A DNA stretch of 64,000 bases from Candidatus Aminicenantes bacterium (GCA_963759765.1 CAVXAL010000002.1:621710-685709); one strand, 5' to 3'; positions 8,270-42,371 are shown, counted from the stretch's first letter. Numbers and translations: made by a program. Notes: generated from the sequence alone by a model not told the origin.

Positions 8270-8330
8270 GGAAACAACTTTTGCTTCGCTTCTTATCTCC
8301 CCAAATTGTATTCTTCTGAGGAGGCTTCAC

Positions 8331-8996
8331 ATGAAAAAGTATTTTGGGTTTGTTCTGGTTCTGATTTTAGCTTTGACTCTTGTCGCCGCCGAACAAACAC
8401 ACAAAGTGGTCATTGTCCGGGGAGGGTCCAGAGCGATGGCTGTGCCCATCCAGGCTTTGTCCTTTTCGAAAGCTTTTTCCCAGAAAGCCGCGATCAAACC
8501 CCGGTTTTTTTCTGCGGGAGAAAAATTGAAAATCCTTCAGGAGGCCAAGATCAATGAGGTCAATGGTGTTTCTGCAGCCGCCTGGAAGGTGACCCTCAAA
8601 TCGCCCAACATCAACGACCGAATGTTTATCACGCTGAGCCAGCCCAATTTCGTTTCCACAGAATTTTATGGCACGGGCGTGGCTTTGTTTGATAACAGCG
8701 ACCAATTTTACAAAGCCAATGGAACAGACAAGGCTTTTAATTTGGACTTTTTTGTTGAAGCTGGCAAATGGTATTTGCTCGATTGCGCGGTCAGCGAAAC
8801 CGATGCCACCTACCGGGTGTTTGTTTATCAACAATCGGGTTCTTCGCAGATCACTTTTGAGAATCCTTCGGACGGGCACCTTTTGATCGTCCTGCAGGCC
8901 ACTGCCGCCGGTCAAGCGTATATTGCTGTCACGGGAAATTGCCCCCGCCAGGGTAATTGGGGCATTTACGGAGCCGAAATCACCGTCATCAAATAA
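8331..8996 (+). CDS. secreted hypothetical protein (cleavable signal peptide)
   Basis: MKKYFGFVLVLILALTLVAA signal; RBS GAGGAGG upstream; no recognisable domain. Confidence 0.5.
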   Translation: MKKYFGFVLVLILALTLVAAEQTHKVVIVRGGSRAMAVPIQALSFSKAFSQKAAIKPRFFSAGEKLKILQEAKINEVNGVSAAAWKVTLKSPNINDRMFITLSQPNFVSTEFYGTGVALFDNSDQFYKANGTDKAFNLDFFVEAGKWYLLDCAVSETDATYRVFVYQQSGSSQITFENPSDGHLLIVLQATAAGQAYIAVTGNCPRQGNWGIYGAEITVIK

Positions 8997-9047
8997 GCCC
9001 TTACTTTCAGGTCTACAACCCGATCGAGTGTTGGCTGCTGAAATTTA

Positions 9048-9064
9048 AAATTTTTTAAAAATTT
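9048..9064. repeat. left copy of island-flanking direct repeat (aaattttttaaaaattt)
   Basis: Matches 10739..10754 (aaattttttaaatatt) at 15 of 16 positions; candidate attL/attR or target duplication. Confidence 0.4.
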
Positions 9065-9071
9065 CTTAAAA

Positions 9072-9455
9072 CTACGGCTTAATATGAAGAACCGAGCTCT
9101 CCGAAAGGTGTATTGCCTTCAGCAGTATTTCTGATTCATTAGATGGCCATCCAATAATATTAGTATGACGTTTTGGGATATTATCTGGATCCAATTTTAA
9201 GCAACAACTATAAATTGAAGATGCGGTTATATCAGCGCGTGCTTTTAAACTACTTGGTCTATTTTTCTCAACTTGAACTCCTATTAACCATATTGCGCTT
9301 TCAGACAAGTCGTATATTCTAAAAACTGACAATTTCTTATTTTGAGGCGGCATGAAGGCACGATGCTTAACACAGTTATTTTCTGAACTAAAATCTTTTT
9401 TTGAAAAAAGAAATCTTGATAGTTTTTCAGATGCTTTGATTTGATGATTATTCAA
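9072..9455 (-). CDS. hypothetical protein (island gene 3, 127 aa)
   Basis: AT-rich ORF; start 1 nt after stop of gene 2; no family recognised (..KHRAFMPPQNKKLSVFRIYDLSESAIWLIG..RHTNIIGWP..). Confidence 0.5.
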   Translation of the reverse strand: MNNHQIKASEKLSRFLFSKKDFSSENNCVKHRAFMPPQNKKLSVFRIYDLSESAIWLIGVQVEKNRPSSLKARADITASSIYSCCLKLDPDNIPKRHTNIIGWPSNESEILLKAIHLSESSVLHIKP

Positions 9456-9456
9456 A

Positions 9457-9942
9457 TTAAAATCCCAACCTTTTAAAATTTTCTATTATTACTGGTGGCA
9501 ATGCGTTTTCGAAATATTCATTCCCATGAATCTGATTCCCCCCAAATATTCCCGCATATTTAATAATTTTTGTATTCCCAATATTTATTATAAAAATTCT
9601 ATTTCTGTCCTTCCTCCATTCAAATCCCACATCTCCATTTGGTTCGATACAAATTTCAGGGAATGGAATAAAGGATGGTATAAGATTTAGAAATTTTTTA
9701 GCTTCAAAGTAAGCATCAATGGATAAGGGTTTGGCTCCCTCTCCATCCCAATCTTCATTCTTACATTCAATTTGTAACTTTTTTAATTCATAAAGGATTT
9801 GATTAAGAAACAATTCGTTAGATGTCTTGTTCTTCCAAATTGGTTTATTTTCATAAATCTTTTCATCTTTGGAGCTTGTACAACTTTGATAACTATTGAT
9901 ATTATAGCATATAGGTGTGGAGCATATAGCTGGGGTGCTCAT
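9457..9942 (-). CDS. hypothetical protein (island gene 2, 161 aa)
   Basis: AT-rich ORF; its ATG overlaps stop of gene 1 (ATGA); Cys-rich N-terminus CSTPICYNINSYQSC; no family recognised. Confidence 0.5.
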   Translation of the reverse strand: MSTPAICSTPICYNINSYQSCTSSKDEKIYENKPIWKNKTSNELFLNQILYELKKLQIECKNEDWDGEGAKPLSIDAYFEAKKFLNLIPSFIPFPEICIEPNGDVGFEWRKDRNRIFIINIGNTKIIKYAGIFGGNQIHGNEYFENALPPVIIENFKRLGF

Positions 9943-10685
9943 ATAAATAACTCCTTTAATTTTTCTGTTATTAAAGAGAAAAAAATTCTATTTTTGAAAT
10001 TTCGTAACCTTTCAAATAATTCCCAAGCTTCGTTATTTTCAAAAAATTCTTTATGTTTAAATACATCTATATCCAGCATTATTGGACAATACCTTGGATC
10101 AACAATCTGTTCGAAGACTTGAGTGATAATTGCTGTAATTCCGGTATCTGGTTCTTCAATTACAACTTTATTAAAGAAACTATTTACTCCTTGTGGCAAT
10201 TCTTTTGGAATAATCGGCGCTGCTGTTAAATACTCATTAAAATCAAGCAATGGTTGCGGATATAAAGGAATACTAATTTTATTTATATACCTAACTGCAA
10301 CTCTTATGATTTCAGGATTTACTAAATCTCTATATATCTTCCAAATTCTATAAGCCTCATCTCTAAGATTCTCCCAGCATTCATAAGGGTTTAACCGATT
10401 AAAAGTAAAGCCATCTATTCTTGTTTGGACAATCTGCTTTTTATCAATAGTTCTAAACCAATACCCTTTTAAAGTTTCTGAACTTGTCGATAAAGGTTTT
10501 AAATCTTTTTTTAACTCAAGCTTACTTTCAAATTCAATTGCCTCTGTTTTTTCTGGATATTGATTTTTTATTTTTTCGTGAATAGAAAGAAATTGTTTCA
10601 CATCAAAATCACTTTTCAACTTTGTCTTTAAATCAATTAATGCTTCATAAATCGGAGCATTATTAAGATGAGCTATCTCTGCCAC
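9939..10685 (-). CDS. hypothetical protein (island gene 1, 248 aa), possibly TIGR04255-like uncharacterised family
   Basis: GTG start at 10685 with GAGGAAAA SD. N-terminal LNNAPIYEALIDL and central RVAVRYINKISIP resemble my recollection of TIGR04255 proteins; unverified. Confidence 0.5.
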   Translation of the reverse strand: MAEIAHLNNAPIYEALIDLKTKLKSDFDVKQFLSIHEKIKNQYPEKTEAIEFESKLELKKDLKPLSTSSETLKGYWFRTIDKKQIVQTRIDGFTFNRLNPYECWENLRDEAYRIWKIYRDLVNPEIIRVAVRYINKISIPLYPQPLLDFNEYLTAAPIIPKELPQGVNSFFNKVVIEEPDTGITAIITQVFEQIVDPRYCPIMLDIDVFKHKEFFENNEAWELFERLRNFKNRIFFSLITEKLKELFI

Positions 10686-15562: not shown

Positions 15563-16486
15563 CTAACCGGTGGAGCCGCTCTTGCGGCTGCGGGGGTGAT
15601 AGCGGTCGTACGCCTTGCGCACCTGGTCCTTGGCCACATGGGTGTAGATTTCGGTGGTGGAGATGTTGGCGTGCCCCAGCAGCAGCTGCACGGAGCGCAG
15701 GTCGGCTCCTTGTTCCACCAGGTGGGTGGCAAAGGAGTGGCGCAGCATGTGGGGCGTCAGCACACCGCCGAGCCCGGTTTTTCTGCCGTAGGCCTTGATG
15801 ATTTTCCAGAGTCCCTGGCGTGTCAGCGGCCGGCCGCTGGGATTGAGAAAGACCGCATCACTTCGCTCCTTCTTGAGCTGCCGGGGCCGGCCGTTTTGCA
15901 GATAATCCCGCAGGCAGGCTTCCGCTTTCGGGCCGAAAGGCACGATCCGTTCTTTGCCGCCCTTGCCCCGCACGCGCAGGAAATTTTCCTCTAGGTACAC
16001 CTGCTCCAGCTGCAGCTGGGCCGCTTCCGAAACGCGCATGCCGGTGGCGTACATCAGTTCGAGCAGCGCCTTGTCCCTTTTGCCGGACGCGCTCCCCGTG
16101 TCGGGGCTTTCCAGCAACCGCAGCACTTCTTCTATGGTCAGGTATTTGGGAAGTTTGTGCCATTTTTTGGGCAATGCCAGGGTAGCGGCGGGATTGGTCG
16201 CCAACCGCTCCTCGGCAACCAGGTAACGGTAAAAACTCTTCAGCACCGAAATCAGATGGGCCTGCGACGACACTGCCCGGCCCTGGCGCGCTTCCTCTTT
16301 CAGGAAGCCGAGGAGCTCGTTGGCAGTGAGCGAGAGGAAATCCAGGCGCTGTTTCTTCAGGTGTGAAAAGAATTTTTCCAGTTCCTGGCGGTAGGAGAGA
16401 GCGGTGTTGAGAGCCAGGCCGCGCTCGACTTCCAGGTGGAGGAGGAATTGACCGACAGCAGTGGGCAGGATCGGTTTTTCGCTCAC
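15563..16486 (-). CDS. tyrosine recombinase XerC/XerD family
   Basis: ALLELMYATGMRVSE, HMLRHSFATHLV, LLGHANISTTEIYTHV catalytic blocks; 307 aa. Confidence 0.85.
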   Translation of the reverse strand: MSEKPILPTAVGQFLLHLEVERGLALNTALSYRQELEKFFSHLKKQRLDFLSLTANELLGFLKEEARQGRAVSSQAHLISVLKSFYRYLVAEERLATNPAATLALPKKWHKLPKYLTIEEVLRLLESPDTGSASGKRDKALLELMYATGMRVSEAAQLQLEQVYLEENFLRVRGKGGKERIVPFGPKAEACLRDYLQNGRPRQLKKERSDAVFLNPSGRPLTRQGLWKIIKAYGRKTGLGGVLTPHMLRHSFATHLVEQGADLRSVQLLLGHANISTTEIYTHVAKDQVRKAYDRYHPRSRKSGSTG

Positions 16487-19382: not shown

Positions 19383-20085
19383 GGTAAAAGCGCAGGATGG
19401 CGGCCATGGCGATGGCCGCGGTTTCGGTTTTGAGGATGGCGTCGTTGATCTTGAGGGATTGCCATCCGCCGTTTTTCAGCCTCTCCTTTTCCTCCGGGGT
19501 GAAATCGCCCGGTGGGCCAATCAGGGCAACCACCGGCCCGGGCTGCAGTGGAAATAGGGTCGGGTTGGGGCGGGGGCCGTCGATGTCGAGAAAAAGCCGC
19601 GTGGCGGCGGTCAGGGGAGAAGATGCCAGGCTGGCCAGAGATGCGGCCGGGAATATCTCGGTGAGCCAGAGTTGGCGATTGGCCTTGAGGGCTTGGATGG
19701 CGATCTTTTGCCATTTTTCGAGGAGCGCCGGCCGGAAGCGGGCATCGGTGCGCTCGCAGAGCAAAGGCCGGATCTGGTTCATTCCCAGTTCGCATAACTT
19801 TTCCATCATCCAGCCCATGGCGTGGGGCTTGGTCAAGGAGACGGCGATGATCGTGGACGGCGCGGGCTGCGGCTGGACCTCTTGGCGGCAGACCGCGGCC
19901 AGCAGAAAATGGCGCTCCAACTTGTCGACCACCGCCTCGAGCAGCCGGCCGCGGCCATTGACCACCTCGATGCGCTCCCCCGGGCGCACGCGCAACACCG
20001 TGGCCAGGTGGTGGTATTCGTCGCCGTCAACCCGGATGCGGTCACTGGCAGCCTCGTGGCCCGAATAGAAGCGGCGCAAACCCAT
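19375..20085 (-). CDS. rsmE: 16S rRNA (uracil1498-N3)-methyltransferase RsmE
   Basis: PUA-like N-terminus and LIGPPGDFT SPOUT motif. Confidence 0.8.
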   Translation of the reverse strand: MGLRRFYSGHEAASDRIRVDGDEYHHLATVLRVRPGERIEVVNGRGRLLEAVVDKLERHFLLAAVCRQEVQPQPAPSTIIAVSLTKPHAMGWMMEKLCELGMNQIRPLLCERTDARFRPALLEKWQKIAIQALKANRQLWLTEIFPAASLASLASSPLTAATRLFLDIDGPRPNPTLFPLQPGPVVALIGPPGDFTPEEKERLKNGGWQSLKINDAILKTETAAIAMAAILRFYHD

Positions 20086-21204
20086 CAGTTCACCATGCCG
20101 TTTTTGCTTTCCGTCTGGACGTTCTCCTTGGCTTTTTCGCTCTCGCGCAGCTCCTTGAACAGTTCCTTTTCCCGGCGGGTCAGCCGACCGGGGGTCTTCA
20201 CCTGGATGAGGATCAGCAGATCGCCGCGTCCCCAGCGGTTGACCTGCTTGAAACCCTTGCCCTTGAGGCGGATGATCTGGCCGCTCTGGGTTTCGGGAGG
20301 GACATGGATCTTTTCCGTGCCGTTGAAGGTGCTGATCTTGATGTCGTCGCCCAGGGCCGCCTGGGCAAAGGAGATATCCAGCGGATAGATCAGGTCGTCA
20401 TCCTGGCGTTTGAATACGGGATCCTCTTGGACGTGCACTTCCAGGTAGAGATCGCCGGGGCGACCCCCCTGCACCCCCTCTTCGCCTTCACCCACCACGC
20501 GCAGGCGGTTGCCCGTGTCTGCACCTGCCGGGATATTCACCTTGAGCTTCTTTTCTTCTTTGACCCGGCCGCTGCCCCGGCAGCGGCTGCAGGGATGGGT
20601 GATCAGCCGGCCGCTGCCTCGGCAGAGGGGGCAGGTGCTGGCGATGGAAAAGAAGCCCTGGGAACGGCGCACGCTGCCCGTGCCGCCGCACTGGCGGCAG
20701 GTTTCTAATTTTTGGCCAGGCTCGCTGCCGGAGCCGCTGCACCGGTCGCAATTTTTCTCGCGTTCCGCTCTGATTTCCTTTTCCACGCCCTGGTAGGCTT
20801 CGGCCAGAGTGAGCTGCACCTCCTGCATCAGGTCCTGACCCGGGTGCGACCGCTGGCCCTGGCGGCGGCCGGAAAAGAAGGAGTTAAAGCCGAACAGGTC
20901 ACTCAGGATGTCGCTGAAGTCGGAGAAGATAGAGTCCGAGAAGAAGCTGGGATCGAAGCGGCCGCTGCCACCACCGGCGCGCAGCCCTGCAAAACCGTAC
21001 TGGTCGTAAATTTGCCGCTTTTCCGGATTGCCCAGCACCGAATAGGCCTCGGAGGCCTCCTTGAATTTCTCTTCGGCAGCCGGGGTCCTCGCGGTTGCGG
21101 TCGGGGTGGTATTGGAGCGCCCGCTGGCGGTAGGCTTTCTTGATGTCGGTCGGGCTGGCGTTGCGGGGAACGCCGAGAATCTGGTAATAATCCCGTTTGG
21201 CCAT
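20085..21204 (-). pseudogene. dnaJ: molecular chaperone DnaJ with one frameshift near 21085 (J-domain separated from Zn-finger/CTD)
   Basis: J-domain ORF 20899..21204 (DYYQILGV...HPDRN) and body ORF 20085..21038 (CxxCxGxG x4) are colinear in adjacent frames; shift in a C/G run around gaccccggctgcc. Confidence 0.8.
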
Positions 21205-26993: not shown

Positions 26994-28148
26994 TCAACCG
27001 CGGGATAAATTTTTAAGGCCGACCAGGCGCAGATAGAGGGCCTCCTGCTGACGCACCATGTGTTCCGCTTCCCATTCGGAGAAATCCTCTTTATCAAATT
27101 CAGCCAGCTGCCGGCGCAGCGGCGGGTTGTTGAGCAGTTCCAGGATGCGCTCGCTGAAGCGGCGATGATCATCCACGGCGACGAGAAATCCATTCAGCCC
27201 ATCACGAATCACTTCCCGGTTGCCGGGAATGTCACTGGCCACCACGGGTTTCTTTTTGAGGCGTAGCTGCACCAGGCTCTGGGGCAGGCCCTCCCAGAGC
27301 GCGGTGGAAACGCCGATGTCGCAGCAGTCGATGACTTTTTCCACCTCGCGGACGAACCCGGGCAGCCGGAAATTCTGGAACAGACCCCGTCGTTTCAGCT
27401 CCGCTTCGAAGCCGCCGCGCAGTTCGCCGTCTCCGGCGACGATGAAGATGGCGGTCGGGTGCTGGCGGATCACCCTTTCGGCGATAGCGATCAGGTGAAA
27501 GAGCCCCTTCTGCGGCTTGAACGGGGCGATCATGCCGCAGACAAAATGGTATCTCTCCAGTTGATAGGCGCGCCGGGCCTGGCCGATGTCGTCATCTGTG
27601 GCCGCTGTGCTGAAACGCCGCAAGGGAAAGCCGCTGCGGATAAGAGAAAAATTGTCTTTGACCAAACGCTGCCTGCGGGCGGTTTCGCTGTCGGCGCGGG
27701 CGACAAAGATGAAATGGCTGGTCAAATGAGAAACCAGTTTTTCCAGACCGCAGAAGAGCGTCCTCTTCCATAGGGGCTGCCGGGGGGAATAAGAAAAACC
27801 GTGGACCGAATGGATGATCACCGGGACGTGGGCCGAGCGGGCGGCCAGGCGGCCCAGAATCCCGGCCTTGGAGGAGTGGGTGTGAACGATATCCGGCTGG
27901 AGGTTTTTCAGGATGCGGCGCAGCTGCCGGAAGGCCAGGAAATCCTGGATGGGGCGAATGGGACGCTGCAGCCGGGGAGCGATCCGCAGGCGCTCAGCGA
28001 AGGAGGCGGAAGGGGCGAGCATGCCTCCCGGCCCGCTGACCAGGAATGTGTCAAACTGCTCCCGGTTGAGGTGTTCCACTGTGAAGAGGGTGTTGAGCTG
28101 AGCGCCTCCGAGTTCCAGTTTGGTGATGACGTGCACCACGCGCAGCAT
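26994..28148 (-). CDS. glycosyltransferase family 4 (GT-B, RfaB-like)
   Basis: N-terminal VITKLELGGAQ, C-terminal EGLPQSLVQ...KKPVVASDIPGNREV motif; start at MLRVVHV (28148), not first Met of ORF track. Confidence 0.75.
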   Translation of the reverse strand: MLRVVHVITKLELGGAQLNTLFTVEHLNREQFDTFLVSGPGGMLAPSASFAERLRIAPRLQRPIRPIQDFLAFRQLRRILKNLQPDIVHTHSSKAGILGRLAARSAHVPVIIHSVHGFSYSPRQPLWKRTLFCGLEKLVSHLTSHFIFVARADSETARRQRLVKDNFSLIRSGFPLRRFSTAATDDDIGQARRAYQLERYHFVCGMIAPFKPQKGLFHLIAIAERVIRQHPTAIFIVAGDGELRGGFEAELKRRGLFQNFRLPGFVREVEKVIDCCDIGVSTALWEGLPQSLVQLRLKKKPVVASDIPGNREVIRDGLNGFLVAVDDHRRFSERILELLNNPPLRRQLAEFDKEDFSEWEAEHMVRQQEALYLRLVGLKNLSRG

Positions 28149-28150
28149 CG

Positions 28151-29392
28151 TCAGTGTTGGTCGAGGCGGGCGGCGGTCCGGCGGGCCGACTGCAAGTCGT
28201 CGGCCATCGAGGTGTAGTTCCAGCTGCCGTAGCGCCCGATCGAATAGATGCCTCGGTTGCGTAGTGTTTCCAGCAGCGGCGGCACCAGCCCCGGCCAACG
28301 GCGGTCAAATAGGATGTAGGATACGGGGATGCAGACCGTGTCCAGGTGCAGCAATTCCCGCCAGGACCGGATCATGCCGGTGGCCATCAGGGTAAAACGG
28401 GTCTGGCGGCGGATTTGCTCTTTGTCCGGATGTTCACCGGGCAGGAGCGTTTTTTCCAGATAGACAAGGGGCCGGGCGGCGTCCGGATAATAGCCAACCC
28501 GGTAGAATGGAAACCGTGGTTCGGAAAGGTAGAGCCAGTGGAAGCGTCGGTGCCTTTTCTCCAGCACCGCGTTGACGACCAGCGTGGAGATATGCCGCAA
28601 CTGACGGGCCGTGGGGGTAAAGTCGGGCGGATCCAGCCGTCTCAGGAACTCATTCAACGGCATGGTGTTGACCAGGAATTCGTAGCGGTAAGTGCCCCTA
28701 TTGGTCTGGACCGTTTTGCGCCGACTGTCGATGCGCAAAGCTTCGGCCTGGAAGGTGATGCGCTCGGCGATCGGCCGGGTCAGATCGGCGATGAGCGCCC
28801 GCAGGCCACGGCGTGGATAATAAAAAGACGGGTTGTAACCCACGCGGCTGAAGCGCTGACCGGCTGCGCCGGCCAATACCTGGCGCCGGTCGGGGACCGG
28901 GAGACTGCCCTTGTCCATGTTGGCCAGCAGCCGGGAAAGTTCCTGACCGTAAAACTTGCTTAAGAAGGGTTTGAAAAAGAAGTTGAATAGGGTATCGCCG
29001 AAATGAAATTTCAAAAAACTTTCCAGATTCGCGTCCGCTCCCGGTGCTCCCTGGCCCGGGTTCAGCATTTGATCCGTGATCTCCTTTTTCAATTTGGCCG
29101 GCAGTGCGGCCAGATGGAACTGCAGGGGAAAGGCGATGAAACGGTCCTGCATGAATACTTTGCTGTTTCTCTGATAGCGGCGCAGGGAATGGAATGTTTC
29201 CAAAAAGTGGCGGATCTCCTCTTTGCCCTGGAAATGGAAATAATGGCCGCCATGGGGGAACCACCAGCTGCCCGATGTATATTCCCCGGCCAGACCGCCG
29301 GCCACCTGGCTCTTTTCAAGCACGAGGAAGTCCTCTTTGAGGGAGAGAGCCGTGCCCAGGCCGGAGATCCCTGCACCGATAATCAGGATCAT
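28151..29392 (-). CDS. FAD-dependent oxidoreductase, UDP-galactopyranose mutase-like
   Basis: MILIIGAGISGLG Rossmann start (ATG overlaps upstream stop as ATGA), HGGHYFHF, C-terminal GRYGSWNYTSMADD like Glf GRLAEYKYYNMD. Confidence 0.6.
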   Translation of the reverse strand: MILIIGAGISGLGTALSLKEDFLVLEKSQVAGGLAGEYTSGSWWFPHGGHYFHFQGKEEIRHFLETFHSLRRYQRNSKVFMQDRFIAFPLQFHLAALPAKLKKEITDQMLNPGQGAPGADANLESFLKFHFGDTLFNFFFKPFLSKFYGQELSRLLANMDKGSLPVPDRRQVLAGAAGQRFSRVGYNPSFYYPRRGLRALIADLTRPIAERITFQAEALRIDSRRKTVQTNRGTYRYEFLVNTMPLNEFLRRLDPPDFTPTARQLRHISTLVVNAVLEKRHRRFHWLYLSEPRFPFYRVGYYPDAARPLVYLEKTLLPGEHPDKEQIRRQTRFTLMATGMIRSWRELLHLDTVCIPVSYILFDRRWPGLVPPLLETLRNRGIYSIGRYGSWNYTSMADDLQSARRTAARLDQH

Positions 29393-30391
29393 TCCATTTT
29401 GACCCGAGCCAGAAAGAGGGCAAAAATCAGGAAAAAAAGGATCAGCAAGGCGGTGCTGACCACGGTTGCCAGCGGCGTGGAGAAAAAATTGATCAGCACG
29501 GCGGCCGAAAGCAGCAGGCTGGATGGCGATAACAGCGATCACCGTTTGCCGGCTGGACCAGTTGAACCTCTTTTTCAGGCGCAGGGCGAAATGATCGGGG
29601 CTGCCCCGGAAGGGCGAACGGCCTTTCAGTAACCTCAGCCAGGTGACATAGACGAGATCAAACAAGGGCAGACCGAGGACGATGAGCGCCGAAAGGAAAG
29701 CCAGGCGGTTGAAGGGGGTGTAGTGGGTCATAACGGCCAGCGAGCCGATGACCAGCCCCAGAACCATGCTGCCCGCATCGCCCAGGTAGATTCGGGCCGG
29801 TTCCCAGTTGAAACGCAGGAAGCAGAGTAGCGAGGCGGCCAGGCTGAGCGAGAGAATGGAGATCAGGAAGTCGTGGTCGTACAGAGATATGACGAAAATG
29901 GTGAGGGAGGCCAAGGCGCCGATCGACGGAGCCAGCCCGTCCATGATGTCGATGATATTGAAGGCGTTGATTGCCGTCAGAATCCATGCGAACGAGAGGA
30001 TGGTGTTCAGCCACTGGGGGATGAAGATGACACGGATCGAGATGCCGCTCTTGATCAGGATGTAGGTCGCCACGATCTGGAAGAAAAATTTAACCCCAGG
30101 TGTCAGCGCTTTGAAATCATCGAAAAGCCCGACGATGAGCAGGATCGAGCTGGCAAAGAGGATGCCCAGGAGCTCCTGGTTGAAATCGAAAAGCAGGGAA
30201 AGCGGCGAGATGAAGGCGAAGTACACGATGACCCCGCCCATGTAGGGTATCGGCGTCTGCTGTTTTTTTAGTTTGCCGTCGGGGAAATCGAGCAGGTTGT
30301 AGTGCGCAGCCACTTTCTGGGCGATCGGCGTGCCGTAAAGGGTCAGCAGAAACGAAAGGGCGAAGGTGAAAAGCAGGATCAGTTCATTCAT
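29390..30391 (-). pseudogene. WecA/MraY-type polyprenyl-phosphate N-acetylhexosamine-1-phosphate transferase, one frameshift near 29510
   Basis: GLFDDF, NAFNIIDIMDGLA motifs; the hydrophobic C-terminal tail ...LLLSAAVLINFFSTPLATVVSTALLILFFLIFALFLARVKME-stop is in the +1 frame; ORF track fuses it to the next gene as 746 aa. Confidence 0.7.
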
Positions 30392-31313
30392 GGTCGCGGA
30401 TGACCTGACGTTTTCTCCGGGCGAGCCGGAAAAGGGGTCCTGCCTTCATCAGGCGGATTATAATTCCCGGTGAACGCGCTGTCAACGCGCCCACCCAGGC
30501 CGCATCGCGGACGAGCATGAAAGGGATGGTCCACCAGAAGCGCCGCCAGCGGAAATTCTTGATCAGGGTGAGGTAACGGTTTTTGACCAGATGGAATTGG
30601 ATGTCGGGAGGGCGGGCCAGGGCCAGGGAATAGCGAGCCAGCCGGTTTTTCACGAGAGTGCCGCTGCGCTGGTGGGTGAGGACGGCGGCGGGCTGGAAAT
30701 AGACGCGGATGCCCAGCAGCTGGGCGCGCCAGCCGATATCGAAATCTTCCCAGAAAAGGAAAAAATCTTCGTCGTAGTATTCATCGCCGATACGCAAGCG
30801 CTCGAGTGCCGGCCGGGAGAACACGGTGGCGGCGCCGCAGCAGGAGAAGGTCTCTCCGGCTCTCAGGTTCAGCCGCTGGCGGGGGCGGTTGTAGCCGATT
30901 TCGCGGGGATGCAGGGCCGGGGAATAGGTTTGGCCGGCCGAATCCACGGTCTGTCGGTCCGGGCGCAGCAACAGGGGGGAAAGCAGACCGAGGCCGGGCT
31001 GCCGGGTGAATGTGTCCAGCACGGCCTGGTTGAAATCGGGGTTGAACACGGTGTCGCTGTTGGCCACCAGGATCAGGTCGGTGTCGGCCAGACGGATGCC
31101 CAGGTTGGCGGCAGCCGGGTAGCCCAGGTTCTTCTGCAAGCGGACCGCCTGCACCCCGGGTGTGGCGGCGCTCAGGTCGGGCGAGCGGTCGTCAGAGGCG
31201 TTGTCAATGACAATGATCTGTTTGAACGGCCGGCTCTGGGAGCGTAGCGACGCCAGGTTGGCGGGCAGGAACTTTTCCGAATTGTAGCTGACGATGACCG
31301 CGGCGATATCCAC
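30384..31313 (-). CDS. glycosyltransferase family 2
   Basis: AVIVSYNSEKFL, VIDNASDD, DxD region. Confidence 0.8.
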   Translation of the reverse strand: MDIAAVIVSYNSEKFLPANLASLRSQSRPFKQIIVIDNASDDRSPDLSAATPGVQAVRLQKNLGYPAAANLGIRLADTDLILVANSDTVFNPDFNQAVLDTFTRQPGLGLLSPLLLRPDRQTVDSAGQTYSPALHPREIGYNRPRQRLNLRAGETFSCCGAATVFSRPALERLRIGDEYYDEDFFLFWEDFDIGWRAQLLGIRVYFQPAAVLTHQRSGTLVKNRLARYSLALARPPDIQFHLVKNRYLTLIKNFRWRRFWWTIPFMLVRDAAWVGALTARSPGIIIRLMKAGPLFRLARRKRQVIRDHE

Positions 31314-31323
31314 GAACCGAAGG

Positions 31324-32508
31324 TCAGTGGATCAGTCCCAGCATTTTGCCGCCCTGATGGAAACCCTTGAGGATAAAATCCAGATCCGCGTCGGTATGGG
31401 TGGCGGTGAAGGAGGTGCGGATCAGCGAGTCTTCCGGGGGCACGGCCGGGGCGATGACTGGGTTGGTAAAGATGCCGTATTCGCGCAGGAATTTCCAGAG
31501 CATGAAGGTCTTCTTCTCGTCGTGGATGAACACCGGGATGATCGCCGTCTCGGTGTTGCCGGTATGGTACCCCATCACGGTCAGTTCTTTGTTCATGATC
31601 TTGGTGATCTGCCAGAGTCGTTCCCGCCTCCAGGGCTCGCTCTGGATGATCTCCAGGGCCTTGTGGGCCGCGCCCAGGGCCGCGGGCGTGATCGAGGCAG
31701 AAAACATCAGGGCGCGGGCGTGGTGTTTGATGTACTGGATGACCTTGCTGTCGCCGCAGACAAAACCGCCCAGCGAGGCGAAGGATTTGGAGAAGGTGGT
31801 CATGATCAGGTCCACCTCGTTCATGACGCCGAAATGCTCGGTGCTGCCGCGGCCGTTCTTGCCCAGAACGCCAACGCCGTGGGCGTCGTCGACCATCAGC
31901 CGCGCCTTGTATTTCTTGGCCAGTTTGACCACCTGGGGCAAGTTGGCCATGTCGCCTTCCATGCTGAAGACGCCGTCGACAATGATCAATTTGCCCCGGT
32001 CATCGGGCTGCTGCTTCAGCTTCTCCTCCAGATCCTGCATGTCGTTGTGGGTGAATTTGACCACGTGGCCATAGGAGAGGCGCACGCCGTCCATGATCGA
32101 GGCGTGCACCAGGCGATCGACGATGATCGTGTCGTGTCGGCTGACAATAGCGGATATGGTTCCCAGGTTGGTCTGCATGCCGGTGGAGAAAGCCAACGCC
32201 TCTTCCTTGCCCATGAACTTGGCCAACTTCTCCTCGAGCTCCACGTGCAACGAATAGGTGCCGTTGAGAAAACGGGAACCGCAGGTGGAGGAGCCGTAGT
32301 GGCGCACCGCTTCGATGGCCGCCTCTTTGATCCGAGGATCGTCAAAGAGGCCGAGGTAATTGTTGGACCCGACCATCAGGATTTTCTTGCCGCTGACCCA
32401 GACGTAATTGCCTTCCACTTTCTCGATTTCGGTGAAGAAGGGGTAAAGGCCGGACTTCTTGGTTTCTTCGGCGCGGGTAAATTCGAAGCATTTCTTGAAA
32501 AGATCCAT
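31324..32508 (-). CDS. alpha-oxoamine synthase family PLP enzyme, serine palmitoyltransferase-like
   Basis: GSNNYLGL, DDAHG, PLP-lysine block TFSKSFASLGGFV (TFSKS typical of Spt rather than KBL/BioF GTLxKA). Confidence 0.7.
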   Translation of the reverse strand: MDLFKKCFEFTRAEETKKSGLYPFFTEIEKVEGNYVWVSGKKILMVGSNNYLGLFDDPRIKEAAIEAVRHYGSSTCGSRFLNGTYSLHVELEEKLAKFMGKEEALAFSTGMQTNLGTISAIVSRHDTIIVDRLVHASIMDGVRLSYGHVVKFTHNDMQDLEEKLKQQPDDRGKLIIVDGVFSMEGDMANLPQVVKLAKKYKARLMVDDAHGVGVLGKNGRGSTEHFGVMNEVDLIMTTFSKSFASLGGFVCGDSKVIQYIKHHARALMFSASITPAALGAAHKALEIIQSEPWRRERLWQITKIMNKELTVMGYHTGNTETAIIPVFIHDEKKTFMLWKFLREYGIFTNPVIAPAVPPEDSLIRTSFTATHTDADLDFILKGFHQGGKMLGLIH

Positions 32509-32556
32509 GCTTAACTCCTGTTTGCAATATTTATAGGCATGTCATAAAATGGGGAC

Positions 32557-33522
32557 ATGAACGTGCTGGTCACGGGCGGAACCGGCTTTGTGGGTCGACA
32601 CCTGCTGGAGGCGTTGCACAGGGAGCACCAGATCTATGCCCTGGCCCGCCAGCCGGCCAAGCTCGACGTCCTGCCTTTCCGGGACCGCCTGCGGGTGATC
32701 CGCGGCGACCTGTTTGCCAGCGAGCCCTTCCCCGACGACATTGAACTCGTTTTCCACCTGGCGGCCGTGACCAAGGTGGTCTCGTCCGCCGAATTTCTGC
32801 ACATCAACCGGGATGGGACTCTGGCGTTGCTGAAACGGTTGGTGGCGCTCCCGCGCTTGAAAAAGGTACTGACGATTTCCTCCATAGCTGCGGCCGGCCC
32901 TTCGTCCGCCGGCCAGCCCCTGCGGGAGGAGATGCCCGCCCGTCCGGTTTCCCTTTACGGTAAAAGCAAACTGTTGCAGGAAGAGGCGGTGCGCAGTTGC
33001 TCGCCGGCGCCCTTTTTGATTGTCCGCGCGCCGATCGTCTTCGGCCCGGGCGACCTGGACATGCTCGGCCTGCTGCGCCCGATCAACCGGGGATTCCTGC
33101 CCATCCCGAGCGGGCAGGTACGCCGGTATTCGTTGATCTATGTCAAAGACCTGGTGCAAGGCTTGCTGACGCTGGCTTTTAGCCCCATCACCAACGACCT
33201 GTTCTATATGGCCAATCCGGAGCCATTGGACTTGGAAAGCTTCGGCCGGCTGGTCGGCCCACTGTTGGGACGCCCAAAGCTCCGCCGTGTACGCGTACCG
33301 GTGGGCCTCGGACCTCTGTTGGGCTGGCTGGTGGAAACAGGATCCCGCGCCATCGGGCGTCGGGCCATCTTCAACCGGGACAAGGTCCGAGAGTTTAAGC
33401 AGCCGGATTGGGTTTGTTCGCCGGAGAAAATCAAACGGGCGGTTCAGTTCATCGCCCGCTGGCCTCTGGTTGAGGCCTGGGCTGAAACCATCGCCTGGTA
33501 CAGGCAGAACCGGCTGCTGTGA
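32557..33522 (+). CDS. NAD-dependent epimerase/dehydratase (extended SDR)
   Basis: VTGGTGFVG Rossmann motif, YGKSK catalytic YxxxK. Confidence 0.8.
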   Translation: MNVLVTGGTGFVGRHLLEALHREHQIYALARQPAKLDVLPFRDRLRVIRGDLFASEPFPDDIELVFHLAAVTKVVSSAEFLHINRDGTLALLKRLVALPRLKKVLTISSIAAAGPSSAGQPLREEMPARPVSLYGKSKLLQEEAVRSCSPAPFLIVRAPIVFGPGDLDMLGLLRPINRGFLPIPSGQVRRYSLIYVKDLVQGLLTLAFSPITNDLFYMANPEPLDLESFGRLVGPLLGRPKLRRVRVPVGLGPLLGWLVETGSRAIGRRAIFNRDKVREFKQPDWVCSPEKIKRAVQFIARWPLVEAWAETIAWYRQNRLL

Positions 33523-34002
33523 CTCTTCCTTTTTTAACTTGACATTTTTCCGTGAATTGAACTCGCAATAGAATTTTTGGGAGGTCTTGATATACCAGTC
33601 TTCTTTGGAATAGGCGGTGAAGATGACCTCGCCGCTGATCGTTTGCCTGCCGATCAGGGCGGTTTCACTGACTTTGAAGGGGATTTCGATCTCTTTCTGC
33701 AGGTCGAGAAATACCTTCTCTTTCTCCTGGACGGTGGGTAAGTTGAGTTCCGAGCCGATGAAAAACATCTTGGCAAAGGAGCAGTTTCCGTTCTCAGCCA
33801 GTTTGATCATGAATTCCGGGTTCGAGGATATCTTGATGTCGGAACGGGGGCTGATCTTGATTTTCAGCATCCCCTCCTCCCCTTGGCGGATGATGGGGGG
33901 AGTGACTGTCGCATCGATCTTGAGAAAATCCTCCTGGCTGATCAGGGGGAAGCAAATGGTAAGAAAAATTCCCCCGGCAATGGCGTTGCGGCGGAAATTC
34001 AT
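33523..34002 (-). CDS. secreted hypothetical protein, lower-GC; 3' end unresolved
   Basis: MNFRRNAIAGGIFLTICFPLISQ signal peptide. ORF frame has no stop until 32542, which would mean a ~480-nt antisense overlap with the epimerase gene; true end probably near 33523-33560 with an indel. Confidence 0.35.
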
Positions 34003-34091
34003 GTCAGTCATATATACCATTTTGCCTGCGCTGTCAATCAGCTGCAGAGCCAGTCCGAGGGGTGGTAATGGGGGTTGGTGCTGAAAGAGAG

Positions 34092-34508
34092 CTAGTTTTG
34101 CGACCCGGCCGGTAATTTTCTCTCGAGAATATCTTTGATGGAGATATACAGAAATCGGGTCTGTATAGCCTGTTCCAGAATTTCCCAAACCGATTTGGCC
34201 AGGCAACTTTCCACCAGCGGACATTTTTTATCGTTCAGGCAATCGGTCAAATATATTTTTTCGTCGAAGGCGTCCATGATCATCTTGATAGTGATCTCCT
34301 CTGGTTTCTTATTCAACACGTAGCCGCCGTATATGCCTTGGACGCTTTTGATGATGGCGGCTTTTTCCAGAGGGCCGGCCAGTTTACGCAGGTACTTGGA
34401 GGATACCTTGATCTCGTTTCCCAGCTTGCTGGTATTGATCACCCGGTTTTCCCGGGCGATCCCCAAGACCATGCGCAGGCCGTAACGGATTTTGGTATTC
34501 ATTTTCAT
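34092..34508 (-). CDS. Rrf2 family transcriptional regulator with three-Cys Fe-S ligand motif
   Basis: N-terminal wHTH (KIRYGLRMVLGIA); CLNDKKCPLVESC (C-x6-C-x5-C). Confidence 0.8.
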   Translation of the reverse strand: MKMNTKIRYGLRMVLGIARENRVINTSKLGNEIKVSSKYLRKLAGPLEKAAIIKSVQGIYGGYVLNKKPEEITIKMIMDAFDEKIYLTDCLNDKKCPLVESCLAKSVWEILEQAIQTRFLYISIKDILERKLPAGSQN

Positions 34509-34671
34509 GAAAGAAAATATAACTCATCTGGTTTTAATTGTCAATTGTCAAGTCTTTTTTTCTTAATTTTTTATTTTGTGTAGAAAAAAGGTAAATTTTC
34601 CTGCAATATCGGCTATTTTGCTAAATGAACGCTTTCCGGGTCTTGTGCTGAAAAAAAGTGAGGTGCTGGCC

Positions 34672-35670
34672 CTATTTCTCTTTTTGCAGCCCTTTCAGAA
34701 ATTCCTCGGAAGCTATCTTGAGCTTGCGCAGTTCGGTGAATTTGGCCACCAGCCGGTCCCTTTCTTTCCAGTGCTCGTCATGTCTGCTGGAATCGATCTT
34801 GTCTTTTTCCACGTTGAGCAAGCCCATGTAGCTCCAGGGGTCCGGGTAATTGGGTTCCAGCTCGGCTGCTTTCTGGAGTGCGGCCAGTCCCTTATCGATG
34901 ATTGCTTGCCTTTCCTTGGGTGCCATCAAATCGGGCGGGGTCTGATAGCTGTGGGCCCAGCAGAGATGGCCGACGCGGTAATAAGCGTCCGCCAGCATGC
35001 TGGTTTTTTCCTTCTCATCGAGGTCGGTCAGCTGCTGGATTTTTTGGAGCCGCAGCTCTTGGTATTTCATAGCGTCATCCCATTTTTTACGGTCAAAATA
35101 ATAGCGGGCCAGGAACAGATACCCTTCCGGGTCATTGGGGTTGAGGTCGATCCGTTTCTGGAACATCTCCACGGCTTTGTCGCCTTTATTGTAACTGGTA
35201 TAGAAATCCGCCAGCACGCTGTAAATCTTGGGATCGTTGGGATTGTTTTCCAGTACTTTAAGAAAATATTTTTCGGCTTCCTCGAAGTTTTTCGTCTTGT
35301 CGTTGATATCGCCCAGGGCCAGGATAATGTCCTTGTTATTCGGGTCCACGTCCAGGGCCTTCTGCAAGTAATCCTTGGCATTGGCGGCCAGTTCTTTGTT
35401 ATTCGGCGTATCGTCGCCGGGCTTGTAGAGCATGGCGTAGGCGGTTCCCAGGTAGAAATAGACGGCTTTGAAATTGGGATTGAGTTTCAGGGCCTCCTCG
35501 TATTCGCTGACCGCTTTCTTATACTTTTCTTCCGAATAGTATTTATTGGCCGTTTTAAAATGACTGTTGGCTTTCAAGTTAGCCACTTTGAATTTTTGGC
35601 AGGCAGAAAAGCCGAGAACGATCACCCCCAGCAAGCACATTACCAGCAGGGCGGATGACAATTTTTTCAT
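34672..35670 (-). CDS. TPR-repeat lipoprotein
   Basis: MKKLSSALLVMCLLGVIVLGFSAC lipoprotein signal with GGAGG RBS; multiple TPR units (LNPNxxxxYxxLGxxY). Confidence 0.75.
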   Translation of the reverse strand: MKKLSSALLVMCLLGVIVLGFSACQKFKVANLKANSHFKTANKYYSEEKYKKAVSEYEEALKLNPNFKAVYFYLGTAYAMLYKPGDDTPNNKELAANAKDYLQKALDVDPNNKDIILALGDINDKTKNFEEAEKYFLKVLENNPNDPKIYSVLADFYTSYNKGDKAVEMFQKRIDLNPNDPEGYLFLARYYFDRKKWDDAMKYQELRLQKIQQLTDLDEKEKTSMLADAYYRVGHLCWAHSYQTPPDLMAPKERQAIIDKGLAALQKAAELEPNYPDPWSYMGLLNVEKDKIDSSRHDEHWKERDRLVAKFTELRKLKIASEEFLKGLQKEK

Positions 35671-35758
35671 ACGGACCTCCTCAACATTGAGATACATATA
35701 TAACGGAATATCGCCCAAAAGTCAAGTTTCATCCGGCCTCAATCTGCTGCCGGGGAAT

Positions 35759-36793
35759 TTAACTGTCTCGATCTTGTTGCATGGTCTCCCAGGTCTTTTT
35801 GAAGATGTCCGGGGAATCCAGATGGTAGGGGCATTTCTCCACGCAGGAGCGGCAGGCGACGCAGTCCTTGAAGCTTTTATTCAGGGCATTCAGCCGTTCC
35901 CAGACCCAATCCTTTAGTTCGTAGAGGAAATAGTAGTTCTTCAGCACGTGCAGGAAAGCGATGGGCAGGCCCTGGGGGCAGGGCATGCAGTATTCGCAGC
36001 GGCGGCAGAAATTCTCACCCAGCCGTTCCTTTTCCCGTTCCAGGTGTTTCCGCTCGGAAGCGGTCAGGGGAGTCAGGTGCTGCAGTGCAGCCAGGTTGCG
36101 GCGGATCTGGGTGAGGGAATTCATACCCGGGATGGCCACCTCGATGCCGCTGCTGAAAATGAAACGGAAGTTGAGGGCGATTTCGCGGATGTTGCCGCCG
36201 CCGATCGGTTTCATGGCGATGGTGCCGATGTGCTGGCGACGGGCATGGGGGAGGAGCTCTTCGGCGGCCGCGCTTTCGATGTGGTTAAAGGGAACTTGGA
36301 TGGTGGCAAACGCAAAGGCCTGCAAGGCCTTGAGCACGATCCAGGGTTTGTGGCCGGAAAGTCCGATATGCCGGATTTTACCACGCTCCTGGGCCTTGAC
36401 CATGGCGGACAGCGCGCCGCCCGGCGCCAGCACTCTGTCCAATTCGGCCTCGCTGGCCACGTTGTGACACTGGTAAATATCAATGCAATCGGTTTGCAGC
36501 TGGCGCAGGCTGGTCTCGATGTCCCTTTCCACCTGGCCAGCGTCGCGGCTGAGTGTCTTGCTGGCGATGACCACCTGACCGCGGTGGCGGGAAAGGACCC
36601 GACCCAGCTTCAGCTCACTGTCGGTATAAACGCGGGCGCTGTCGAAAAAATTGATGCCCATCTCGACGGCGCGTTCCAGCAGCCGGTCGCTGGCGCGCAG
36701 AGAGAGCCGCTGGATGGGAATGCCGCCCATGCCCATGCGGCAGACCTGCAACCCGGTGCGCCCCAGCATGATCGGCGTGTTTGCCTTGGCCAT
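35759..36793 (-). CDS. aldo/keto reductase with C-terminal 4Fe-4S ferredoxin-type cysteine cluster
   Basis: AKR barrel motifs (GMGGIP, FFDSARVY, IGLSGH); C-terminal CRRCEYCMPCP...CVACRSCVEKCP; start at MAKANTP to avoid overlap with maf. Confidence 0.75.
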   Translation of the reverse strand: MAKANTPIMLGRTGLQVCRMGMGGIPIQRLSLRASDRLLERAVEMGINFFDSARVYTDSELKLGRVLSRHRGQVVIASKTLSRDAGQVERDIETSLRQLQTDCIDIYQCHNVASEAELDRVLAPGGALSAMVKAQERGKIRHIGLSGHKPWIVLKALQAFAFATIQVPFNHIESAAAEELLPHARRQHIGTIAMKPIGGGNIREIALNFRFIFSSGIEVAIPGMNSLTQIRRNLAALQHLTPLTASERKHLEREKERLGENFCRRCEYCMPCPQGLPIAFLHVLKNYYFLYELKDWVWERLNALNKSFKDCVACRSCVEKCPYHLDSPDIFKKTWETMQQDRDS

Positions 36794-40640: not shown

Positions 40641-41600
40641 ATGGAACGGAAGACGGTGATGAGCGGCATGCGGCCCACCGGTGCCCTGCACCTGGGCCAC
40701 TGGGAGGGCGCGCTCAAAAGCTGGCTGCAGCTGCAGCAGACACAGCCGACTGCTACTTTTCCATCGTCGACTGGCACGCCCTGACCACCGAATACCAGGA
40801 TCCCCAGCACATCCGGCAGAACATCCGCGAAGTTCTGCTGGACTGGCTGAGCGCGGGCATCGACCCGGAACAGAGCGTCATCTACCTGCAATCGGCGGTC
40901 AAGGAGATCGCCGAGCTGTTCCTGCTGCTGGGCATGATGACGCCCCTGGGCTGGCTGGAGCGGGTGCCCACCTTCAAGGAGCAGCAGGCGCAGTTGCAAG
41001 ACCGCGACCTGAACACCTACGGTTTTCTCGGCTACCCCCTGCTGCATGACCGTGGACATCGTCATCATGAAGGCCGAACGGTGCCGGTGGGCGAGGATCA
41101 GGTGTTCCATCTGGAACTGGCGCGAGAGATCGTCCGCCGTTTCAATACCTTTTTCGGCGCCTATTTCCCCGAGCCGCAGGAGTTTCTCACTCCCATCCCC
41201 AAACTCCCCGGTCTGGACGGCCGCAAAATGAGCAAGAGTTACAACAATGCCATCTATCTGAGCGACAGTGCCGCGACCGTGACCGACAAGATCAACCCCA
41301 TGGTGACCGACGTCCGCCGCAAGCGGCGCAGCGATCCCGGCGTGCCCCAGGATTGCCCGGTATTCGCCCTGCAGCAGGCCTTCTCCAGCGCCGAGGAGGT
41401 CGCCGCCATCGACCGCGATTGCCGCACGCGCGGGCATCGGCTGCCTGGACTGCAAGAAGATCGTCATCCGCCAATATCAATGAATTTCTCGAACCGTTCC
41501 GCCAGCGGCGCGCCCGTTACACCCAGGCGAATCTGGACGAGATTCTGGAAGCCGGAAACCGCCAGGCCCGCCAGCGGGCCGGCCAGACCATGGCCGACGT
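40641..41600 (+). pseudogene. trpS: tryptophan--tRNA ligase with at least five frameshifts
   Basis: Fragments MSGMRPTGALHLGHWEGAL / ADCYFSIVDWHALTTEY... / GYPLL-MTVDIVIMKAER-VPVGEDQVFHLEL / KMSKS / CRTAGIGCLDCKK / INEFLEPFRQRRARY found in alternating frames; shifts ~40742, ~41040, ~41085, ~41440-41480. Confidence 0.75.
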
Positions 41601-41615
41601 GCGTCGTTTCTTTTG

Positions 41616-42371
41616 AACCTGTGATGGAAGCCGAGCGGTTACCAGGTACAGCACCGACTATTTCGAGGGGCCGCTCGACCTGTTGCTGCACCTGATCCGC
41701 AAGAACAAGATGAACATCCTGGAGATCCGCCTCTCGCAGATCACCACCGAATATCTCTCTTATCTCGAACACCTTCAGGGCATCAATCCCTCGCGGGAGA
41801 GCGATTTTCTGATGACCGCCGCCACCCTGATTTACATCAAGTCGCGGTCGCTGCTGCCCCGGCCTGAAGAACCTGGCCGACGAGTCGCCTGAGAAGCAGC
41901 TGATCCGCACACCTGATCGAGTACGAGAAGATCCAGAAAATTTCGGAGAATGCTGCAGGAAATGGAATACACCGAGCTGCTGCTCTGGCGGCGGGAAGAG
42001 ATCGGCGAGAACTTCGACAACCGCGAATACATGCTCTGAAAGAGGTGTCGGCTTTTCAACTGGCCGAAATCTTTTTCGCCATGGTGCGCAAGAAGGAGGA
42101 AGAGCAGTTTCTTTACATTTCTTCCAAGCACTATTCGATTGCCGGCAAGCGGCAGGAGATCCTGGCGCTGCTGGAGGAGAGCGGCTATCTGGATTTCAGC
42201 GATTACGTGGCCAAGCGGGATTCGATCGAAGAGATCGTGGTGAGTTTTTTCACTATCCTGGAGATGGTCAAACGCCACCTGCTGATCGCCATTCAAAAAG
42301 AGCTGTTTGGACGCATCCAGCTCTGGAAGCTGGACCGGCTGGAAGCGCAACTGCGGCGGGGGAAAGCGTGA
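41616..42371 (+). pseudogene. scpA: segregation and condensation protein A with several frameshifts
   Basis: YFEGPLDLLLHLIRKNKMNILEI (41683 ORF) and C-terminal SAFQLAEIFFAMV... (42045 ORF) in different frames; intervening region has stops in all frames. Confidence 0.7.

Follow-up and report, generated by a model that had tools for sequence, protein, structure and literature searches.

A sphingolipid-linked operon predicted in Candidatus Aminicenantes joins a serine palmitoyltransferase-like synthase to a small glycan-building module

In a stretch of 64,000 nucleotides from a genome of Candidatus Aminicenantes bacterium (GCA_963759765.1 CAVXAL010000002.1:621710-685709; below called the window, with positions counted from its first letter), we analysed a glycosyltransferase gene cluster at positions 26,994 to 33,522 which contains a gene for a pyridoxal 5'-phosphate (PLP)-dependent enzyme resembling serine palmitoyltransferase (Spt). 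Judged from sequence comparisons, this cluster belongs to a lineage-wide Aminicenantes operon that joins an Spt-like synthase to a small glycan-building module. On this basis, we regard the locus as linked to sphingolipids and a glycosylated sphingolipid as a plausible product. A preliminary description of the stretch had proposed a possible (glyco)sphingolipid or unusual glycolipid locus; the link to sphingolipids holds by virtue of the Spt-like synthase and a neighbouring short-chain dehydrogenase/reductase (SDR), and the glycosylated product stays a prediction. Aminicenantes, also referred to as candidate phylum OP8 and placed within the Acidobacteriota in GTDB, occur widely in anoxic sediments, aquifers and digesters. 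We know of no cultured members of this group and of no lipids reported from it.

The conserved unit was delimited by comparing loci gathered from species-representative genomes and through contig look-ups, with the open reading frames (ORFs) of all loci aligned all-against-all. In 14 loci, including the one in the window, we found a core with the order small exported protein, Spt-like synthase, family 2 glycosyltransferase (GT2), WecA-like phosphosugar transferase and flavoprotein resembling UDP-galactopyranose mutase (UGM). The flanks of this core are the same in the window, L002, L007 and L038-L040, and unrelated in L003, L005, L004, L029, L030, L031, L033 and L032, of which L004 is cut after the GT2 gene. 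The GC content of the core loci ranges from 27.5% (L031) to 59% (window). Since the block survives a full change of the flanks as well as large shifts in GC content, the linkage of Spt to the glycan genes is more than an inherited neighbourhood, and that Spt persists in the block where the flanks are unrelated speaks for a common function. The Spt-like gene lies between the small-protein gene and the GT2 gene in 13 of the 14 loci, the exception being L032; the core thus comprises five genes, with Spt present almost always but not without exception. Another 16 contigs, seemingly common to the match lists of Spt and flavoprotein, add weak support.

All six genes of the preliminary description, together with their positions and strands, were borne out by strong domain matches (Table 1), and what it had overlooked is the gene for a conserved exported protein of about 158 amino acids. 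The minus-strand genes of the window follow each other tightly, with 10 nt between Spt and GT2, an 8-nt overlap between GT2 and transferase, an ATGA overlap between transferase and flavoprotein, and 2 nt between flavoprotein and the family 4 glycosyltransferase (GT4). Such spacing is as expected of one transcript. The SDR gene is divergent from the Spt-like gene, with 48 bp between the two. It is found in the window, L002, L007, L038, L039 and L040, where it forms an inverted insertion that separates the small-protein gene from Spt, an arrangement confined to the subclade of the window, and it is absent from L003, L005 and L029-L033. In the window, L002, L007, L003, L005 and L038-L040, the flavoprotein gene is followed by that for GT4, which is absent from L029, L030, L031 and L032. 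SDR and GT4, both previously counted as parts of the cluster, therefore do not belong to the conserved core and are accessories of some subclades.

The identity of the synthase was assessed by family models, solved structures, active-site residues and a small tree. Among the NCBIfam models, NF047600 (SerpalmtaseCFB) scored best with 548.6 bits, compared to 399 bits for the BioF/Kbl family, 389 bits for both bioF and the beta-proteobacterial Spt, and 380 bits for KBL. Compared to proteins of solved structure, the synthase is closest to the SPT of Sphingobacterium multivorum (428 bits), followed by Thermus BioF/KBL (294 bits), Sphingomonas SPT (276 bits), CapB (265 bits), KBL and SulA (246 bits each), BioF (194 bits), ALAS (189 bits) and CqsA (131 bits). 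Sequence identity to S. multivorum SPT is 51% over 376 ungapped residues, versus 35% to Kbl and 31% to BioF of E. coli. Lys241 aligns with the PLP lysine, Lys244, of S. multivorum SPT and lies within the block MTTFSKSFASLGG. For S. multivorum SPT, 15 residues have been described that bind PLP and L-serine (PMC10196870), namely Asn52, Gly80, Ser81, Phe114, His138, Ser185, Asp210, Ala212, His213, Thr241, Ser243, Lys244, Met271, Ser273 and Ala274 (S. multivorum SPT numbering). The Aminicenantes synthase keeps 14 of them with an offset of -3; the sole change, Phe114 to Met, concerns a contact made via the main chain. In a neighbour-joining tree, the Aminicenantes synthases form one group (100% bootstrap), and E. 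coli Kbl and BioF fall outside the clade that contains both this group and S. multivorum SPT (98% bootstrap); relatives from Bacteroidales/Odoribacteraceae, at 35% identity, fall on a separate branch.

Model scores, solved-structure comparison, active-site residues and tree thus agree with the Spt-like identity assigned beforehand, and the phylogeny, for which a firm placement in BioF/KBL was not found, groups the enzyme with S. multivorum SPT. By these comparisons, the synthase is closest to Spt of the Bacteroidetes (CFB) type rather than to BioF/KBL, and it is a candidate for acting on serine and acyl-CoA. Homologues number in the hundreds among metagenome-assembled genomes (MAGs) of Candidatus Aminicenantes/Acidobacteria. 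Among the operon proteins of loci with a full-length synthase gene, conservation is highest for the synthase, with 76-84% identity across Aminicenantes versus 45-74% for the others. On the 27.5% GC contig of L031, positions 2-220 encode the C-terminal 72 residues of an Spt-like protein that is still highly similar to the one from the window with its 59% GC.

The SDR keeps the GxxGxxG motif for NAD as well as a YGKSK (YxxxK) catalytic motif. Its best NCBIfam model is HpnA, its orthologues match the lipid ketoreductase models HpnA, OleD and SdmB, and its matches to solved sugar epimerases are weak (50 bits or less). Full-length orthologues with 26-34% identity and a common C-terminal motif adjoin Spt-like genes in MAGs of Bacteroidetes (L014 and L028), Ignavibacteriota (L026) and Gemmatimonadota (L021), all four of these loci being without glycan genes. 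Since the orthologues adjoin Spt in the absence of glycan genes, a role as lipid ketoreductase partner is favoured over one as sugar epimerase, and the SDR of the window is a candidate 3-keto-sphingoid or oxo-ceramide reductase. The earlier suggestion that it serves Spt as partner for the reduction step gains from these four loci in three other phyla. In three of them (L014, L026 and L028), a GNAT-like gene of about 370 amino acids directly follows the Spt-like gene. Spt, CerR and bCerS were reported to be clustered (PMC11334938), and CerR of Caulobacter was described as a predicted NAD-binding dehydrogenase with NDUFA9 homology (PMC11324152, PMC11087976). The grouping of SDR, Spt-like and GNAT-like genes in L014, L026 and L028 appears to match this reported arrangement, where we infer the correspondence of SDR and CerR from the description of CerR rather than from a sequence comparison.

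Spt-like genes 48-54% identical to that of the window were also found in Firmicutes/Mycoplasmatota MAGs (L006, L008, L015, L017, L019 and L020) assigned to Christensenellaceae, Bacillota, Izemoplasmatales and Acholeplasmataceae. Each of them adjoins a gene for a classical adh_short SDR of about 268 amino acids, and the Spt-like protein of L006 reaches 556 bits on the Spt CFB model. These neighbourhoods hint at possible sphingoid-base synthesis in Gram-positive and wall-less lineages.

Turning to the glycan enzymes, the phosphosugar transferase was aligned with WecA and MraY of E. coli. It keeps the DD motif (GLFDDF), the NAFNxxDxxDG motif (NAFNIIDIMDGL) and the GDAGS motif (LGDAGS). The HIHH loop of WecA is replaced by DHFALRL (SPDHFALRL), in which the first His alone is kept, and the score on the NCBIfam WecA model TIGR02380 is 99.7 bits versus a cut-off of 326. 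Due to the lost HIHH loop and this low score, the sugar donor, and possibly the acceptor, may differ from those of WecA proper. As a multi-span membrane protein with the catalytic motifs of the PF00953 family, the enzyme is placed in this family of polyprenyl-phosphate type but not with WecA proper.

For the flavoprotein, the only relatives of solved structure are the UGMs of T. cruzi and Aspergillus (74 bits over nearly the full length). In comparison with these, it keeps GxGxxG, the GGH loop, QRxS...FPxQ, FxYPxRG, WLY, PFYR and GRxGxWxY. Two positions are substituted: the Arg of F-M-R-P-Y-N-F-K, which we take to be the second diphosphate-binding Arg, is Lys (FFKPFLSKF), and the Tyr of K-G-Y-P, presumably the active-site Tyr, is Trp (RRWP). 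The bacterial Glf model TIGR00031 gives 27 bits versus a cut-off of 303.75. The flavoprotein is thus a putative furanose-forming enzyme resembling the eukaryotic type of UDP-galactopyranose mutase. The GT2 is of a soluble or peripheral type with weak NCBIfam similarity to MftF, rhamnosyltransferase and GlfT1; it is 50-60% identical in all related loci and always encoded between Spt and the phosphosugar transferase. Searches of GT2 and GT4 against solved structures and family models gave no specific assignment.

As assembled, the transferase runs in frame into the flavoprotein, with a single ORF of 746 amino acids at 28151-30391. The transferase had previously been delimited as a gene of its own at 29390-30391; it is one in the relatives, and the assembled sequence has no stop at 29390. 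We located a 1-nt insertion (an extra C) near 29518. The +1 frame past about 29518 codes for the membrane helices expected at the C-terminus of the transferase, and deletion of one C yields a protein of 333 amino acids that aligns end-to-end with the relatives, has the C-terminus ...ARVKME* and overlaps the flavoprotein start by ATGA exactly as in the relatives. In this assembly, dnaJ (20085-21204, minus strand) is also frameshifted, with the J domain in an ORF at 20899-21204 and the frame lost after HPDRN, and trpS (40681-41695, plus strand) is broken into at least three frame pieces; both genes are intact in the syntenic loci L038-L040. Since transferase and flavoprotein are separate genes in cleaner relatives, and since dnaJ and trpS of the window are frameshifted, the fusion is read as an assembly error: a genuine WecA-flavoprotein fusion was rejected, and the 746-aa ORF is most likely due to an indel. 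Taken together, the three frameshifts suggest that indel errors are frequent in this assembly.

The conserved unit begins with the gene for the small exported protein, which is 44-66% identical to the product of the gene directly upstream of Spt (of GT2 in L032) in the 13 related loci. In an AlphaFold2 model (pLDDT 84), an all-beta sandwich comes after an N-terminal helix of the signal or anchor kind. No Pfam family was assigned, and Foldseek returned only generic Ig-like matches; among 1.84 billion cluster representatives, only 50 related clusters were found. In the window, this gene has no stop at 33523-33525 (minus strand), where GAG is read; the stop of the relatives lies 8 nt from the SDR stop. 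The resulting ORF spans 32542-34224, its extra part of about 330 codons running opposite the SDR gene as far as 32542. The absent stop may be either a true stop loss or a sequence error.

Two promoter-like sequences were noted on the minus strand. At 34010-34045, TTGACA, a 17-nt spacer and TATATG stand immediately before the ATG of the small-protein gene at 34002; because this motif abuts the start codon, the leader of the transcript may be very short or missing. A perfect sigma-70 consensus (TTGACA, 17 nt, TATAAT) lies at 30457-30485, in the 3' end of the GT2 gene and 66 nt upstream of the transferase start, and may serve the distal genes as an internal promoter.

In order to arrive at a product, these predicted activities can be arranged in a pathway. 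The Spt-like enzyme would condense serine and acyl-CoA to a 3-keto long-chain base without the need for an acyl carrier protein (ACP) as partner. The 3-keto group would be reduced by the SDR or, in the other subclades, by an unlinked equivalent, and an unlinked acyltransferase may N-acylate the base. The flavoprotein would provide a furanose nucleotide sugar, and the phosphosugar transferase and GT2, plus GT4 where present, would assemble a short head group or glycan of N-acetylhexosamine (HexNAc)-phosphate and hexose/furanose. Placement of this glycan on the sphingoid lipid would yield a glycosylated or phosphoglycosylated sphingolipid of the envelope, with the exported small protein presumably working on the periplasmic side. 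Of the readings considered, we tentatively favour such a glycosylated or phosphoglycosylated sphingoid lipid of the cell envelope as what the operon may make.

Several points weigh against such a lipid. The synthase remains under the equivalog cut-off of NF047600 (548.6 versus 640 bits), as do all tested Spt-like relatives from other phyla (470-556 bits). A tblastn search with the GNAT-like neighbours from L014, L026 and L028 detected no ceramide synthase candidate, whether in the window of 64 kb or in the other Aminicenantes loci. The preliminary description had advised looking for a ceramide synthase or an ACP partner; the window and all related loci showed neither of these, nor an acyl-ACP synthetase. 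In the bacterial glycosphingolipid pathways described so far, sugars are transferred directly to ceramide (PMC6445935). Such pathways are not known to use a phosphosugar transferase of the polyprenyl-phosphate type. No flippase, polymerase, ligase or transporter is encoded in the operon. Our literature searches found no paper linking Aminicenantes with Spt and no lipid data for the group. To our knowledge, enzymes of the WecA family act only on polyprenyl-phosphate acceptors. Furthermore, L032 (3902-7868) carries small protein, GT2, transferase and a longer flavoprotein of 447 amino acids with no Spt, which means that the glycan module is able to stand alone. A screen of the whole window for ceramide synthase, ACP, acyl-ACP synthetase and ceramide kinase found none. 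Spts of the Bacteroidetes type use acyl-CoA (PMC11324152), so that the lack of an ACP or acyl-ACP synthetase is uninformative.

Some of the same points would fit two products made from one promoter, namely plain sphingolipids from Spt and SDR and, separately, an undecaprenyl-diphosphate-linked glycan of HexNAc and furanose. The acceptor of this glycan could be, for example, the linkage unit of a cell-wall polymer, a glycoprotein or a molecule resembling lipopolysaccharide, and co-transcription would reflect a shared role in the envelope. Apart from the stand-alone module of L032 and the acceptors known for WecA-family enzymes, the transferase retains all WecA/MraY catalytic motifs for a reaction of the polyprenyl-phosphate type, the trio of WecA, UGM and GT2 recalls WecA-initiated glycans that contain galactofuranose (Galf), and the perfect sigma-70 consensus within the end of GT2 stands shortly before the transferase gene. 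However, Spt keeps its place in the block in 13 of the 14 loci although flanks and GC content have turned over completely, which is unusual for functionally unrelated genes, and the glycan genes come without the flippase, polymerase or ligase of such a pathway. We consider two separate products the main alternative, though a less likely one; if they were made, the locus would be a normal envelope operon whose set of genes is unusual.

A more specific version of the glycosylated sphingoid lipid would have the WecA-family enzyme put HexNAc-1-phosphate on ceramide, a long-chain base or their 1-phosphates instead of undecaprenyl, and the GT2 add a furanose supplied via the eukaryote-type mutase. 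We regard this particular route as improbable. If true, it would mean a new class of phosphoglycosphingolipids and a new acceptor class for the WecA family, confined to an abundant uncultured lineage.

The synthase might also use another amino acid or acyl donor (Ala, Gly, Thr or cysteate) and make a 1-deoxy or sulfonolipid-like base which is then glycosylated or attached to a glycan. Its score below the Spt equivalog cut-off would agree with this, and Spts take Ala and Gly at low efficiency (PMC10196870), the related CapB and SulA use cysteate (PMC9304779), and a broad substrate diversity was proposed for environmental Spt-like proteins (PMC11334938). These points are opposed by the identity of 14 of the 15 PLP/L-serine residues to those of S. 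multivorum SPT, the remaining one being a main-chain contact, by the gap between CapB (265 bits) or SulA (246 bits) and Spt (428 bits), and by the separate branch of the Bacteroidales/Odoribacteraceae relatives, and we judge a different substrate quite improbable. The sulfonolipid type of CapB/SulA in particular was considered unlikely from these scores and from the separate branch of the 35%-identity relatives. That the synthase is BioF (biotin) or KBL (threonine catabolism), standing beside polysaccharide genes by chance, is hardly credible and was rejected as close to refuted by model scores and tree: pipelines of the Joint Genome Institute (JGI) annotate homologues as 8-amino-7-oxononanoate synthase and the BioF and KBL models still score about 380-390 bits, but the Spt model leads by 150 bits, the identities (51% versus 35% and 31%) and the 98% bootstrap exclusion separate the enzyme from both, and no bio or tdh genes were found near it.

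The operon shares parts with several known systems. Like S. multivorum SPT (PDB 3A2B, 8GUH), the synthase, of about 394 amino acids, is predicted to be a soluble enzyme of the acyl-CoA type, and the two have the PLP-lysine block in common; in contrast to that enzyme, the synthase comes from another phylum, and its gene shares an operon with those for a phosphosugar transferase, a GT2 and a mutase-like flavoprotein. The Spt-like gene with its neighbouring SDR, putatively of the NAD-binding dehydrogenase family, resembles the set of Spt, bCerS and CerR of Caulobacter (CCNA_01220/01212/01222) and Bacteroides, whereas no GNAT-type candidate was found within 64 kb of the Aminicenantes operon or in any related locus, and the SDR occurs in one subclade only. 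Glycosphingolipid synthesis in Caulobacter (CcbF/Spt, Sgt1, Sgt2) and Sphingomonas also combines Spt with glycosyltransferases, there leading to a sugar-bearing outer-membrane sphingolipid (PMC6445935). In Caulobacter, however, CCNA_00792/00793 lie outside the spt operon and glycosylate ceramide directly (PMC6445935), and neither a WecA-family enzyme nor a pyranose-furanose mutase is known to take part. In the capnine/sulfonolipid pathway (CapB/SulA plus CapC), an alpha-oxoamine synthase and an SDR reductase similarly make a sphingoid-like base (PMC9304779), but the similarity of the synthase to that of the operon is far lower (265/246 versus 428 bits), and the window contains no cysteate synthase candidate.

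Among glycan systems, the operon has the WecA-family transferase, UGM-type flavoprotein and GT2 in common with WecA-initiated, Galf-containing glycans such as E. coli K-12 O16, Klebsiella galactan I and the mycobacterial GlcNAc-Rha-Galf linker (WecA, Glf, GlfT1). It differs from these in its eukaryote-type mutase, the replaced HIHH loop, the lack of flippase, polymerase and ligase, and the coupling to an Spt-like enzyme and an orphan exported protein. None of the papers found by our literature searches described an operon in which Spt is combined with a WecA-family enzyme and a pyranose-furanose mutase.

With Spt-like genes on record for MAGs from about 40 phyla (PMC11334938), their occurrence in a new lineage is unsurprising. 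The combination of Spt, phosphosugar transferase, GT2 and mutase in one operon predicts a specific lipid and a possible environmental biomarker. If the proposal of a glycosylated sphingoid lipid is true, bacterial sphingolipid biology would extend past Bacteroidota and Proteobacteria, and WecA-family enzymes might have a new chemistry. The orphan exported protein family, in turn, gains a clear genomic context.

Table 1 Genes of the Aminicenantes operon and its immediate neighbours in the window.
Gene product	Position	Strand	Domain match or remark
GT4-family glycosyltransferase	26994-28148	-	Glycos_transf_1 (7.9e-25) and Glyco_transf_4 (CAZy GT4 type)
UGM-like FAD-dependent flavoprotein	28151-29392	-	NAD_binding_8/Amino_oxidase
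WecA/MraY-family phosphosugar transferase (PNPT)	29389-30391 after frameshift correction	-	Glycos_transf_4 (PF00953, 1.5e-31)
GT2-family glycosyltransferase, about 309 aa	30384-31313	-	Glycos_transf_2 (1.9e-21)
Spt-like alpha-oxoamine synthase, PLP-dependent, CFB type	31324-32508	-	Aminotran_1_2 (PF00155, 8.4e-59); MTTFSKSFASLGG lysine block
Extended SDR, epimerase/3-beta-HSD family	32557-33522	+	Pfam Epimerase (5.8e-23)
Exported protein, about 158 aa	33526-34002	-	Conserved upstream gene; no Pfam family
Rrf2-family regulator	34092-34508	-	TIGR00738 (5e-30); directly upstream of conserved unit

The position of the Rrf2 gene is shared by L001, L038, L039 and L040 and was not seen in L029-L033; linked to the operon only in the closest subclade, the regulator may or may not control it. 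The operon variant of L032 adjoins a gene for a large Y_Y_Y sensor kinase.

Elsewhere the window carries housekeeping genes, for a mutase, PurA, a XerC/D-type recombinase, DnaK/DnaJ/GrpE and a phosphoglucosamine-mutase-like enzyme as well as bacterioferritin, Maf, ThyX, TrpRS, a polyprenyl synthase and ETF. An inositol-lipid cluster at 54-57 kb was considered and rejected, since the genes there encode a MurU-like nucleotidyltransferase, PyrE and a nucleotidase of the HAL2/CysQ type. The recombinase gene lies at 15563-16486. Two patches have a low GC content compared to about 0.59 elsewhere in the window: the first, at 8001-10000 (0.41), has ORFs without Pfam match at 7787-8996, and the second, at 34001-36000 (0.48), carries the small exported-protein gene and a gene for a TPR lipoprotein.

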